Positions 60,001 through 63,000 of a stretch of 64,000 nt of DNA are shown here, piece after piece. The position numbers are program-made. The stretch's first letter is position 1, and every line of letters begins with the position of its first letter. The stretch spans positions 32,557-96,556 of the forward strand of contig CBFGIT010000011.1 of NCBI GenBank assembly GCA_965648905.1, in the 5' to 3' direction. The stretch is from a candidate division WOR-3 bacterium (GTDB lineage: Bacteria; Hydrothermota; Tepidihabitantia; Tepidihabitantales; Tepidihabitantaceae).

Positions 60001-63000
60001 AAAGTGAACTCGGCCCACGCCGTAGTGCCGACCAGCGCAGACAGCAGAACCAGTCGCGCCGACAGGCGCAAAAGTCCCACCGCGCAGCCCTGGTCTAGTT
60101 CCCGGGTGCGCGATAGACTGTCACCGAACGGATGCTCTCCGGGTCCTGACCGGCGCGTCCGAACAGGTCTTCAACCGCCTTACGGTCGGACGCGTCCCAG
60201 CAACAGATCGGCTGGTTCGTGCTGTTGTCCACGTATGCCCAGTCCATCTTGAGACTGGTTCCTTCGGCTGCGGAGACGACCTTGAAACAGGCGATTTTCA
60301 CCTGCTCGGCTGACATCGGCTTCAGCGTGATGATGAACTTGGCCACTTCGACTCCTTGGTTTGTCCGTCATTCTAGCTCAGCCTCCTGCCTCGTCAACGA
60401 GAAACGCCCGCAGGTTCTGCCTGCGGGCGTTTGTCTGCCGGTCTTAGCCTCGAATCAAAATGGCGTCGGGAGCGGGGAAACAAGGGGGTTATTTTTGGTG
60501 GGTTGGGAAGGAGGGATACCCGCTCCCGACAAATAGCATACTCCAGATTGTCTGCCCGAAGCCTAGCCTCGGGTCAAAAGAGCAATTCTATCTGCGACCG
60601 CTGATACCACCACGGTCCTGGGCCGCTGTTTGAGTATCAGCTCTGCAAGCGGATTCTCAATCAGGCGTTGAATTGTACGTTTCAGAGGTCGCGCGCCGAA
60701 ATCAGGGTCAAAGCCTTCCTTCGATAGCACATCCTCCACGCCTGGTTCTATTATAAGCTCCACCCCCTGCTCTGTCAACAAATCCTTTACCCGGGCCAGT
60801 TGAATATCAGCAATCTTGCGGATATCGTCCCGGGACAGCGGATTGAACACGACCACTTCATCAATTCGGTTCAGAAACTCGGGTCGGAAGTTCCTGCGCA
60901 AGAGCGCCATCAGGTCCTCACGGTCCACGCGGCCGCCGCGCGCCAGCTCGGTTCCAAGATTGGAGGTCATGATGACAATCGTGTTCTTGAAGTCAACTGT
61001 CCGGCCATGACCGTCGGTTAGCCGGCCGTCGTCCAGAATCTGCAGCAGCACGTTGAACACGTCGTGGTGCGCCTTCTCAATCTCATCGAGCAGCACCACC
61101 CGGTAAGGCCGGCGTCTGACCGCCTCGGTCAACTGCCCGCCTTCCTCAAACCCGACATAGCCGGGCGGCGCACCAATCAGGCGCGAAACCGTGTGCCGCT
61201 CGCCGTACTCGGACATGTCAATGCGCACCATCGCCTCTTCGGTATCGAACAGGACCCGGGCAAGGGTGCGAGCGAGCTCGGTCTTGCCCACGCCGGTCGG
61301 GCCGAGAAAGATGAAGCTGCCTATCGGCCGGTTCCGGTCCCCGATTCCGGCCCGGGCCCGGCGGATGGCATTGGCCACGGCCGTGACTGCTTCATCCTGA
61401 CCCACGACCCGCTTGTGAATCTCCTCTTCAAGCCGCAAGAGCTTATCTCGCTCCGACTCCATCAGGTTCTTAAGCGGGATTCCGGTCCACTTGGCGACAA
61501 TCTCGGCAATGTCCTCGTCGGTGACCATCTCGCGCAGCATCCGGCTGGTTCGGTCCTTTGCCTGGGACTGGGCAAGACGCTTCTTCAGCTCGACGAGCCG
61601 ACCGTACTCGAGTTCAGCCGCCCGGTTCAGGTCGTACTTGCGCTTGGCCGCCTCAATCTCGGCCGTGACTCGTTCCATCTCCTCCTTCAGCCTGCTCACC
61701 TCCTCGACCTCACGCCGTTCCGCCTCCCACTGGGCGGTCAGGCGCTGCTGCTCTTCCTTAAGGTCGGCGATTTCCTTTTCTATCTCCAGAAGCCGCTTCT
61801 GCGACGCCTCATCCTTCTCGCGCTTGAGCGAGAGCTTTTCCATCTCCAGTTGCAGCACACGCCTGTCCACCTCATCCAGCTCCACCGGCTTGGAGGTAAT
61901 CTCCATCTTCAACTTGGCTGCGGCCTCGTCCACCAAGTCAATCGCCTTATCAGGCAGGAACCGGTCTGAAATGTAGCGGTTGGACATCACCGCGGCCGCG
62001 ACCAGGGCCGCATCAGCAATCTGCACACCGTGGTGCACTTCGTAGCGCTCCTTGAGACCGCGCAGGATAGAAATCGTCTCCTCAACCGAAGGCTGGTCAA
62101 CATAGACCGGCTGGAACCGGCGTTCCAGCGCCTTGTCCTTCTCGATGTACTGACGGTACTCATCAAGCGTGGTCGCACCGATACAGCGCAGCTCGCCCCG
62201 GGCAAGCATCGGCTTCAGGAGATTGCCCGCATCGACCGCACCCTCAGCCTTGCCGGCGCCGACGACTGTATGCAGCTCGTCGATAAAGAGCACGATTTGA
62301 CCATCTGACGATGCCACCTCCTTGAGCACGGCCTTGAGCCGGTTCTCGAACTCACCGCGGTACTTGGCGCCGGCAATCAGTGCGCCCATGTCCAGGGCCA
62401 CAAGCCTTCGGTTCTTCAGGCTCTCAGGTACATCACCGCGAACGATGCGCTGGGCCAGCCCTTCGACAATCGCGGTCTTGCCCACACCTGCCTCGCCAAT
62501 CATCACCGGATTGTTCTTGGTTCGACGGGAAAGCACCTGGATGACACGCCGGATTTCCTCATCCCGGCCGATAACCGGGTCGAGCTTGCCGTCACGGGCA
62601 AGCTGGGTCATGTCGCGGCCGAACTTCTCCAGCGGCTGATAGCGCTCCTCTGCACCCTGGTCGGTCACCCGCTGCGAACCGCGCAACTGCTTCAGCACCG
62701 CCAGGACCCGGTTCCGGTCCACGCCGAAGTGCTTCATGATGCGTGCGACCTCGCCGTCCTTCAGGTCCAGAAGCCCAAGCAGCAGATGCTCGGTCGAGAC
62801 AAACTCGTCCTTGAACCGGTGCGCCTCTGCCTCGGCGTGTTGCAGCACCTTCTGCAGGCGCGAGGACATATAGAGCTGACCTGCGCCCGACACCTTGGGC
62901 CGGTCGGCCAAAGCCGCCCGGACATGCTCAAAGACCTGGCGCGGCTCAGCACCCAGTTGCGCAAGCAACTGCGGCACCAGCCCTTCAGGCTGCTCGACCA

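Follow-up and report, generated by a model that had tools for sequence, protein, structure and literature searches.

The clpB locus and its 3' hairpin

The 64,000-nt window analysed here, from the 3.0-Mb genome (G000) of an uncultured candidate division WOR-3 bacterium, carries clpB on its minus strand (Table 1). The gene product contains the Pfam domains Clp_N, AAA, AAA_lid_9, AAA_2 and ClpB_D2-small; the N-terminus suggests that the true start is likely the ATG near 63109 rather than the start of the listed ORF, and no Shine-Dalgarno (SD) sequence was found in clpB's own start region. The coding sequence ends with a TAG at 60565-60563, and a large-looped hairpin begins 32 nt past this stop on the same strand. 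Throughout, f1 denotes the family of G000 (G000 plus 43 other genomes; 15 genera), f3 and f4 are the second and third families with copies, and counts out of 34 refer to G000 and the 33 other f1 copies with an assembled clpB 3' end.

Table 1. Features at the 3' end of clpB, numbered from the first nucleotide of the window
Feature	Position	Strand	Sequence or basis
clpB coding sequence	60563..63163	minus	ORF list; hosts the internal promoter and would supply ~180 nt of the predicted RNA
-35 hexamer TTGACA	60773..60778	minus	codons Leu TTG and Thr ACA; invariant in 34/34 f1 copies
-10 hexamer TATAAT, 17-nt spacer	60750..60755	minus	TATAAT in 26/34, TATACT or TACAAT in 8/34 f1 copies
Predicted transcription start	60743	minus	7th nt after the -10 hexamer
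Candidate second hairpin in coding part	60632..60658	minus	RNAalifold; tentative
ACAAUCUGGAG motif, between clpB stop and hairpin	60541..60551	minus	pentamer conservation
Stem 5' strand, 12 bp	60519..60530	minus	GUCGGGAGCGGG
Loop, C-rich, G-poor	60477..60518	minus	42 nt, 19 C, 1 G; then GCCAUUUU
Stem 3' strand, 12 bp	60465..60476	minus	CCCGCUCCCGAC
GCCA tail	60461..60464	minus	RCCA invariant in 34/34 f1 copies; missing in f3, f4
Canonical intrinsic terminator	60396..60432	minus	GC-rich stem, 5-nt loop, U-rich tail; separate from hairpin

The stem has the 12 bp given in the preliminary description of this element, with a possible thirteenth pair (U60531.G60464), and closes a loop that spans 38-42 nt within f1 and 38-44 nt across families, rather than the 42-44 nt described. 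Both the minimum-free-energy and centroid folds of G000 leave the loop unpaired, and the fold of a 181-nt stretch has a z of -3.7. In the alignment, the 13-pair helix is paired in 99.3% of 455 cells vs. 41-60% for slid controls, and 7 of the 13 pairs carry changes on both sides (0-2 in the controls); the two compensatory stem changes reported earlier were both recovered. Since the stem's G.U variants fit the clpB strand only and seven of its pairs covary, the comparison of sequences supports an element at the RNA level, encoded on the clpB strand. Within the loop, the segment AUCCCUCCUUCCC (60505-60517) includes CCUCCUU, which matches the 3' end of the 16S rRNA of G000 itself (...GGAUCACCUCCUUUCU), confirming the anti-SD core that had been proposed.

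Two further elements flank the stem. One is the RCCA tail; a tRNA-like minihelix (12 bp plus NCCA) was rejected, as RCCA is present in 34/34 f1 copies but is replaced by AAAU... in f3 and by ACAA in the f4 genome G060, and the loop has 38-44 nt vs. 7 nt for a T-loop. On the clpB side, a pentamer A[C/A]AA[U/C], corresponding to the first five bases of ACAAUCUGGAG, is located 2-24 nt away from the stem in 30/34 f1 copies (in L020, L055 and L056 the script picked a nearer, unrelated pentamer); depending on the genome, the ACAAUCUGGAG motif falls in coding or in non-coding sequence. A second promoter at this NACAAT motif was discarded for want of a -35 partner.

Distribution and conservation

BLASTN returned matches in 34 of the 43 other f1 genomes, representing 13 of the 15 genera, at 88-100% identity and amid DNA that is unalignable between genomes, bearing out the conservation previously claimed for stem and loop; one of the 34 (G028) is a 26-nt partial match at a different locus. 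The 81% copy reported for a sister family was found again in G060. A covariance model identified one copy per genome in G000, in 33/43 other f1 genomes, in 6/6 f3 genomes and in 1/2 f4 genomes, and none in 80 genomes of the 11 remaining families in the class; the previously stated reach, f1 plus one sister-family genome, was therefore incomplete by the six f3 copies. All ten f1 genomes without the hairpin are also without an assembled clpB 3' end, so the element is present in 34/34 f1 genomes that are assembled there.

Within f1, at least 26 loop bases are invariant. Between families the 3' half of the loop diverges, and only AUCCCUCCUUC is invariant across all three; a composition of 19-21 C and 0-2 G was nonetheless found in the four loops counted (one f1, G060 and two f3), even with the diverged 3' half. 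The earlier judgement that this conservation exceeds the needs of a terminator is upheld. As was also described, the element directly follows clpB on the same strand at every locus and the downstream genes differ. Because the downstream neighbour is a convergent glyQ in 9/25 loci and otherwise variable, the arrangement suggests that neither the RNA nor the promoter described below serves a downstream gene.

A 22-nt word of the loop matched 14 metagenome-assembled genomes in a scan of genome contigs, which did not extend the distribution given above. Among the matches listed in a metagenome scan with the 13-nt core and three degenerate bases, none of the 80 loci retrieved fits the covariance model; these are chance matches, several of them tRNA 3' ends. 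Viral contigs gave no match to the motif. In Rfam 15 (cmscan, E up to 10) the hairpin had no match, the weak matches obtained belonging to the downstream terminator, and no family was found for the second locus of genus g13 or the large-RNA region of G000 (see below). Among the papers listed on clpB UTR-derived sRNAs and on anti-SD sRNAs with C-rich (CCUCC) loops, no title or abstract opening describes this element.

A predicted consensus promoter inside clpB

A promoter motif absent from the preliminary description lies within the clpB frame about 200 nt upstream of the hairpin. In G000 it matches the sigma-70 consensus TTGACA-N17-TATAAT at 12/12 positions (60750-60778), and it is found in 34/34 f1 copies, at 12/12 in 26 and 11/12 in 8. 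Among 59 columns with an invariant residue of at least four-fold degeneracy, TTG and ACA are the only ones with a single codon. Only 6 third codon positions are invariant among 220 columns, of which 4 fall inside the two hexamers, and the third positions in the -10 hexamer are invariant. Judged by this codon usage, the promoter motif is kept by frozen synonymous codons, i.e., it is under selection.

The same consensus occurs in 21 perfect copies in G000 vs. 0.1 expected, including copies before tRNA genes and rpmH, and this excess indicates that it is the working promoter of the organism. The other families have Leu-Lys/Gln/Glu at the corresponding place in different codons, and 5/6 f3 genomes and G060 have TTGACA-N16-TAAAAT 13 codons further upstream; support for a promoter in f3 and f4 is weaker, these genomes being AT-rich, the f3 copies coming from one genus and the -35 being partly dictated by Val-Asp-Ile codons. 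In 13 genomes without the hairpin, no promoter match of at least 10/12 was found between -420 and -100.

With a consensus promoter inside clpB, a separate RNA of about 265-285 nt is to be expected; in 15 measured loci, the predicted start and the sixth nucleotide beyond the stem are 264-285 nt apart. The conserved promoter thereby strengthens the case that the hairpin RNA would form a transcription unit of its own. The proposal of a clpB 3'-UTR-derived sRNA stands as regards an RNA element on the clpB strand; its own promoter inside clpB had been missed.

The predicted RNA and its ends

In the coding part of the predicted RNA, a candidate second hairpin has the arms GAGAAUC...GAUACUC in G000, with GAUUCUC in most relatives. 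Its cells are paired in 86% of cases vs. 23-44% when slid, 3 of its 10 pairs are changed on both sides, and two of the six third codon positions that are invariant fall within it. Pairing of G-rich codons at the RNA's 5' end with the loop was also considered and dropped, as those codons are not conserved.

At the other end, the canonical terminator begins 32 nt past the hairpin in G000, where the terminator parts of Rfam leader models also align (60396-60432), and it is probably the 3' end of both the clpB mRNA and the nested RNA. Because this terminator follows, the hairpin itself is not taken as one: its 42-nt loop compares with about 3-8 nt in intrinsic terminators, only 4 U follow a GCCA spacer, and the terminator scan gave no call on it. 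G000 and at least five other genomes have a distinct canonical terminator 10-42 nt beyond the hairpin, and only 13/34 f1 copies show 5 or more U in the 10 nt that follow the stem, these having no other terminator. The description of the RNA as "terminator-embedded" is thus not sustained. Any processing of the RNA, like its start and 3' end, is something that we infer.

Metatranscriptome libraries contain part of the stretch, with 24 runs listed across 18 studies, each with a small word share (0.06) that corresponds to the conserved core of relatives. In 4/4 runs examined, unstranded contigs span the hairpin and extend 43-137 nt into the clpB 3' end of a relative. The element is therefore present in RNA libraries, in which DNA may also occur, and such contigs show neither start, end nor strand.

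Loop partners and a module shared with a large sigma-54 RNA

SD-like motifs in G000 have their maximum at -12 to -8 ahead of long ORFs, so this genome uses SD sequences, unlike Bacteroidia. Searches for a partner of the loop gave no specific candidate. Across the 3.0-Mb genome, the best complements to the loop were at chance level, one 13-nt match being a same-sense copy; no start site had at most one mismatch to the 13-mer or an extended match, and in the ranking of start-region duplexes spurious GC-rich ORFs dominated and no target emerged. The clpB mRNA gave nothing specific against the loop. The rpsU start region was rejected as a target because its strong SD fits the 16S tail better than the loop. 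Neither Hfq nor CsrA was found in G000; RNase E/G and Rho are encoded.

The 10-mer CCUCCUUCCC occurs at only two sites in all of G000, namely this loop and a ~730-nt sigma-54-driven RNA upstream of rimP, and both sites have GAGCGGG plus 2-4 nt before it and AAC after it. This shared module (GAGCGGG, 2-4 nt, CCUCCUUCCCAAC) has a fixed place in the large RNA in at least seven genera, and in genus g13 it is part of a 26-nt stretch of likeness, so the repeat of a 26-nt loop stretch that had been reported upstream of rimP is real. The large RNA is confined to the same order, with BLASTN matches only in f1 and f4. It differs from the hairpin in being large and multi-helix, in having a sigma-54 promoter and in presenting the motif in another local fold, and the hairpin covariance model gives no match there. 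Predicted pairing between the loop and the large RNA was no better than for shuffled loops in seven genomes.

Interpretation and alternatives

The explanation favored here, tentatively and at a little under an even chance, is a nested, independently transcribed sRNA gene in the final ~300 bases of the clpB locus, with a loop that would pair with SD-like sites. The sigma-70 promoter inside the clpB frame would start an RNA near 60743 that spans the last ~60 clpB codons and then the conserved hairpin, and in G000 its transcription would stop at the terminator 32 nt past the hairpin, giving a length of about 283-350 nt; the heat-induced clpB mRNA would likewise carry this hairpin at its 3' end. 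The 12-bp stem would display a ~40-nt single-stranded, C-rich and G-poor loop, in which the invariant AUCCCUCCUUCCC segment copies the anti-SD core of 16S rRNA. The loop may then act as a seed that pairs with G-rich, SD-like ribosome-binding sites of mRNAs, or with another RNA, lowering translation without Hfq. Against SD pairing, the f1 loop has 26 or more invariant bases, far above the 8 nt that such pairing needs; against a nested sRNA, no target was found and the library contigs are unstranded.

The excess of invariant loop bases and the lack of an RNA partner would be accommodated by a protein-binding decoy that mimics the 16S rRNA 3' tail, a rather unlikely alternative in which the helix and the single-stranded AUCCCUCCUU would imitate helix 45 and the anti-SD tail. 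The decoy would bind or titrate a tail-holding factor, such as the bS21/bS18/bS6 pocket proteins, the Era KH domain or a KhpA/B-type KH protein, and the module in the large RNA before rimP-nusA-infB (30S maturation) would bind the same factor. The restriction of CCUCCUUCCC and its flanks to these two RNAs of G000, the fixed position of the module in at least seven genera and the 26-nt likeness in g13 agree with a common protein ligand; according to PMC7797042 and PMC9976891, a protein pocket holds the anti-SD tail in Bacteroidia, and the 16S 3' motif is treated in the Era review PMC10582724. However, by eye the likeness to the 16S tail is modest beyond CCUCCUU, the genome uses SD sequences and the 3' half of the loop varies between families. 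The extended form, in which both order-specific RNAs present one module (a GAGCGGG strand and then CCUCCUUCCCAAC) as 16S-tail mimics that decoy a 30S platform or assembly factor, is a long shot; if true, anti-SD availability and the choice between SD-led and SD-less mRNAs would be tied to heat shock and nitrogen/sigma-54 signals.

Alternatively, the element might act purely in cis at the 3' end of the clpB mRNA, as a stabilizing stem-loop, a terminator in small-genome genera and/or a Rho-loading (rut) site. Its invariable place directly after clpB on the same strand, the 13/34 f1 copies that combine a U-run with no other terminator, the retention of loop composition in the four loops counted despite sequence divergence, and the encoded Rho, for which a C-rich, G-poor loop fits the predicted rut composition, are compatible with such a role. 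A selected internal promoter would be senseless for a pure 3' end signal, however, and a separate terminator follows within 10-42 nt in G000 and at least five other genomes; a loop of 38-44 nt with a U-run starting 4 nt past the stem would make a poor intrinsic terminator, and letter-for-letter loop identity across 13 genera is more than composition-driven Rho binding needs, making a cis-only role improbable. A DNA-level element (an attachment or recombination site or a protein-bound palindrome, with a possible quadruplex on the opposite, G-rich strand) would suit the single copy per genome, the varying downstream genes and the four G-runs on the plus strand of the loop, but it is very improbable: no integrase or recombinase is found among 25 downstream neighbours, no viral contig has the motif, the compensatory changes and G.U pairs point to selection on the RNA pairing of one strand, and non-G loop bases are invariant as well. 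Hardly credible, finally, is a small protein gene that starts from the UUG in AUUUGUCGGG, with the GGAG of the upstream motif before it, and runs through the hairpin. By eye the frame is open in G000 from the UUG to a UGA at 60455-60457, but the loop's A-run differs in length by 1-4 nt between genera and not in threes, so the frame shifts between them, and the spacing from GGAG to UUG ranges from 2 to 8 nt or more.

If the nested sRNA gene is the correct reading, an uncultured phylum gains a well-defined putative sRNA gene, complete with promoter, fold and conserved motif. The locus also illustrates that a protein gene can hold a fully consensus promoter purely by codon choice across 13 genera, and the shared anti-SD-like module links two undescribed RNAs of one order. 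Should the loop target ribosome-binding sites or factors holding the 16S 3' tail, the RNA would modulate translation initiation globally, in a lineage placed between SD-using bacteria and the SD-blind Bacteroidia.

Comparison with known systems

In enterobacteria, DapZ in dapB and MicL in cutC are sRNAs nested at the 3' end of a gene, with a promoter of their own located within the coding sequence upstream. The clpB element resembles them in its promoter in the 3' part of a protein gene, here predicted from sequence, in a 3' end region that the RNA would share with the parent mRNA, from which the RNA could also come, and in a conserved, putatively functional part just past the stop codon. In contrast to both, it occurs in another phylum and without Hfq, its putative seed lies in a 38-44 nt hairpin loop instead of a linear 5' seed, and its promoter has the housekeeping consensus rather than that of a stress sigma factor.

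Anti-SD loop sRNAs are represented by the "cuckoo" family and NfeR1 of Alphaproteobacteria (PMC4615179, PMC10746234). According to these papers, they likewise expose a C-rich, CCUCC-type motif in a hairpin loop, and the motif is common to different RNAs of one genome; they are intergenic with two or three loops of ordinary size, whereas the clpB element has one very large loop with AUCCCUCCUUCCC. The clpB element also differs in matching no Rfam model. In the Bacteroidia ribosome, bS21, bS18 and bS6 sequester the anti-SD (PMC7797042, PMC9976891). That system shares with the clpB element a CCUCC-bearing 16S 3' tail displayed as a single strand and a related part of the bacterial tree; it differs in using a ribosomal protein pocket with no separate RNA, whereas G000 retains its SD peak.

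A conserved RNA hairpin at the 3' end of clpB

The gene preceding the hairpin was identified as clpB by Pfam matches to Clp_N, AAA, AAA_lid_9, AAA_2 and ClpB_D2-small; the features of the locus in the source genome (G000) are collected in the table below.

Features at the clpB 3' end in the source genome
Feature	Coordinates	Strand	Remarks
Promoter TTGACA-N17-TATAAT	60778-60750	-	perfect match in consensus scan; within clpB coding sequence
Predicted transcription start	near 60743	-
Candidate second hairpin	60632-60658	-	inverted repeat GAGAAUC...GAUACUC (GAUUCUC in most relatives)
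clpB stop codon	60565-60563	-	TAG
Motif ACAAUCUGGAG	60541-60551	-	traceable in most copies of the family
Possible 13th stem pair	U60531.G60464	-
12-bp stem	60530-60519 with 60476-60465	-	32 nt past clpB stop
Loop	60518-60477	-	42 nt; 19 C, 1 G
Intrinsic terminator	60396-60432	-	GC-rich stem, 5-nt loop, U-rich tail; 32 nt beyond hairpin
Promoter-like TTGACG-N16-TAGAAT of next gene	60370-60397	-	directly 3' of terminator tail
Next gene, 83-aa ORF	60095-60346		weak SCO4226-like match

The stem was evaluated in an alignment of 41 sequences (35 distinct rows, 455 cells), in which 99.3% of the cells hold standard pairs and both partners have changed in 7 of the 13 pairs: U-A to C-G (7 rows), C-G to G-C (1 row), G-C to A-U (6 rows), A-U to G-C (6 rows), G-C to C-G (1 row), a second G-C to A-U (11 rows) and a further G-C to A-U with G.U intermediates (1 row). 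When the partner strand was slid by 1-3 columns as a control, 41-60% of cells were paired and 0-2 pairs changed on both sides. The G.U intermediates are compatible only with the clpB-sense strand, and the alignment as a whole indicates that the hairpin is an RNA structure on that strand.

In the source genome the entire loop is unpaired in the minimum-free-energy and centroid folds alike, and GCCAUUUU comes next after the stem. The preliminary description gave a loop of 42-44 nt; the range is 38-42 nt within the family and 38-44 nt across all copies. Composition is kept at 19-21 C and 0-2 G in the four copies counted (one from the source genome's own family, f1, one from G060 of family f4 and two from family f3), and the 3' half differs among families. 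The block AUCCCUCCUUC is invariant in all 41 sequences, extending to AUCCCUCCUUCCC in f1 and f3 and ending ...UUCAC in G060. This block includes CCUCCUU, which is also the anti-Shine-Dalgarno (anti-SD) core at the 3' end of this genome's 16S rRNA (...GGAUCACCUCCUUUCU), bearing out the anti-SD-like box described earlier. A small ORF across the hairpin was excluded because the A-run of the loop varies by 1-4 nt and not in multiples of three. Directly 3' of the stem, RCCA is invariant in f1 and missing in f3 and G060, which argues against a tRNA-like minihelix.

By eye, the clpB frame beyond the TAG is open across the whole hairpin, up to a UGA at 60455-60457 (60455-60570 inspected, minus strand), and clpB of genus g1 (G000, G002) ends five codons before that of several relatives (e.g., G039, G007), with 9 extra nt after the stop.

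Distribution and genomic neighborhood

Full-length copies (88-100% identity by BLASTN) were found in the source genome and 33 of the 43 other f1 genomes, covering 13 of 15 genera, and G060 holds a copy at 81% identity. None of the ten hairpin-less f1 genomes has an assembled 3' end of a clpB orthologue, so that the hairpin is present in 34/34 f1 genomes where it is observable; six show only a ClpA/C-like paralogue (G005, G021, G028, G033, G042 and one more at paralogue level), three show nothing above threshold, and in G037 and G041 clpB is truncated by the contig end. Among clpB 3' flanks fetched from 19 genomes of other families, a diverged homologue lies directly 3' of the stop codon in all six f3 genomes (one genus). 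Its 12-bp stem is a different one, its loop of 40-44 nt opens with CAUCCCUCCUUCCCC, and it carries a second CCCUCC box. In the class of 132 genomes, a covariance model derived from copies of f1, f3 and f4 matched the source genome, 33/43 other f1, 6/6 f3 and 1/2 f4 genomes, and none of the 80 genomes of f2 and f5-f14; each has one copy, except G060, where overlapping contig ends carry two. On unrelated metagenome contigs (L165, L169, L176, L178, L190 and others), the 13-nt core AUCCCUCCUUCCC is found as well in a long-variable-arm tRNA, where it forms the T-arm and acceptor 3' end and is a source of chance matches in short-word searches.

A convergent glyQ (glycyl-tRNA synthetase alpha), probably the ancestral arrangement, lies 3' of the hairpin in 9 of 25 loci (L007, L011, L015, L019, L025, L028, L032, L054, L055); the neighbors are otherwise variable, and none of the 25 loci has an integrase among them. 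Where glyQ is present, the hairpin sits between two convergent 3' ends. Judged from these neighborhoods, expression of a downstream gene is not the purpose of the predicted RNA.

A promoter within the clpB coding sequence

A conserved promoter inside clpB is a new observation of this study. It was found in 34/34 f1 copies, matching at 12/12 positions in 26 and at 11/12 (TATACT or TACAAT) in 8, with the -35 hexamer beginning 224-329 nt ahead of the stem and adjacent codons freely variable. Over the last ~220 aligned clpB codons, 57 of the 59 invariant-residue columns of at least four-fold degeneracy use 2-6 codons; the two single-codon columns, Leu TTG and Thr ACA, are the -35 hexamer. Third positions are invariant in 6 of 220 columns, four of them within the two hexamers. 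In other families this place holds Leu-Lys, Leu-Gln or Leu-Glu, specified by other codons, and the sole Leu-Thr outside f1 is TTA ACC. TTGACA-N16-TAAAAT occurs 13 codons farther upstream in f3 (5/6) and G060, a weaker case given the AT-richness of these genomes, the single genus that makes up f3 and a -35 partly dictated by Val-Asp-Ile codons. No match of at least 10/12 lies at -420 to -100 relative to the stop in 13 hairpin-less genomes (nine f2, three f5 and G061); their four promoter matches, at -74, -47, +31 and +47, serve downstream genes.

The source genome (62% G+C) contains 21 perfect TTGACA-N16-18-TATAAT sequences vs. 0.1 expected from composition, some ahead of tRNA genes and rpmH, and this consensus is evidently the organism's working promoter. 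Apart from the clpB copy, three (C23:14901, C25:16965, C5:74464) are located within long open frames and may point to additional nested transcription units.

Extent of the predicted RNA

From the predicted start to 6 nt beyond the stem, the RNA would measure 264-285 nt (15 loci). The inverted repeat between start and stem, within clpB codons Glu-Asn-Pro-Leu-Ala-x-x-Leu-Ile-Leu, is 86% paired over 34 f1 copies, with three pairs changed on both sides and invariant third positions in the Glu GAG and Leu CTG/TTG codons; unclear in other families, it may form a second hairpin. The motif ACAAUCUGGAG, without a -35 partner, is a possible processing site. A pentamer corresponding to its first five bases lies 2-24 nt from the stem in 30/34 f1 copies, a count in which the script gave a nearer unrelated pentamer for three of the 30; it codes for the ClpB tail (Val-Gln-Ser-Gly-Ala) in some genera and is non-coding in others.

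The hairpin had been read as possibly terminator-embedded; since the source genome has a separate intrinsic terminator, the hairpin does not serve as the clpB terminator there. No Rfam 15 family covers the hairpin, the sole weak matches falling on that terminator. A separate terminator-like hairpin follows the stem by 10-42 nt in 6/34 f1 copies, at least five U occur within 10 nt past the stem in 13/34, where the hairpin itself may terminate, and several genus g14 copies have neither.

A 501-nt query shared a small portion of its words (0.06) with 24 listed metatranscriptome runs from 18 studies. In 4/4 runs examined, contigs of 46-212 nt span 60461-60534 and then 43-137 nt of a relative's clpB 3' end, extending 27-52 nt downstream in two. 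The hairpin sequence is thus present in RNA libraries, which is weak evidence of expression: neither the strand nor the ends can be read from the contigs, and the libraries may contain DNA.

A module in common with the large sigma-54 RNA

The source assembly contains two copies of the 10-mer CCUCCUUCCC, one in the loop and one at C28:22478, within the gene-free region of ~1 kb ahead of rimP-nusA (C28:22000-23050; L129/L130) that holds the ~730-nt large sigma-54 RNA. GAGCGGG plus 2-4 nt precedes the 10-mer and AAC follows it at both sites. In at least seven genera the module lies 163-237 nt downstream of a conserved anchor in the large RNA; in genus g13 it is duplicated, one copy matching 26 nt of the hairpin loop, in line with the recurrence noted in the preliminary description. 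Predicted pairing between the two RNAs was no better than in shuffled controls, and the region in the source genome has no Rfam match. It also contains a conserved AAGAAGGAGGCUAAGAUG box and, by eye, a sigma-54-like TGG-N9-TGC near 22055-22070. This common module is the part likeliest to conceal something new.

Function and relation to known systems

The best-supported reading of the findings as a whole is a small RNA gene nested in clpB, with a stem that would display a long, single-stranded loop resembling the anti-SD. On the model of small RNAs with C-rich loops, this loop would base-pair with G-rich sites that resemble the SD; SD sequences occur in a subset of the genes of the source genome, peaking at -12 to -8. 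RNase E/G and Rho are present in this genome; Hfq and CsrA were not found. No specific target of the loop was found there, and loop conservation within f1 is greater than SD pairing requires; therefore, two other explanations, considered equally unlikely, retain some weight: one in which the hairpin binds a protein by mimicking the 3' tail of 16S rRNA, and one in which it is a 3' end or Rho-loading element acting in cis.

Small RNAs nested in the 3' end of a gene and transcribed from an internal promoter are a known class, and the architecture predicted from sequence for the hairpin gene matches them. A clpB-nested RNA of this kind was not found in the literature at the title and abstract level, which is no proof of absence. 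Elsewhere in the source genome, rpsU (bS21; C15:30090-30146) carries a 10-nt extended SD, AAAGGAGGUG, a perfect complement of the 16S tail that calls to mind the autoregulation of rpsU in Flavobacteriia that PMC9976891 describes. Small RNAs with anti-SD loops (PMC4615179) share the motif logic of the clpB loop.
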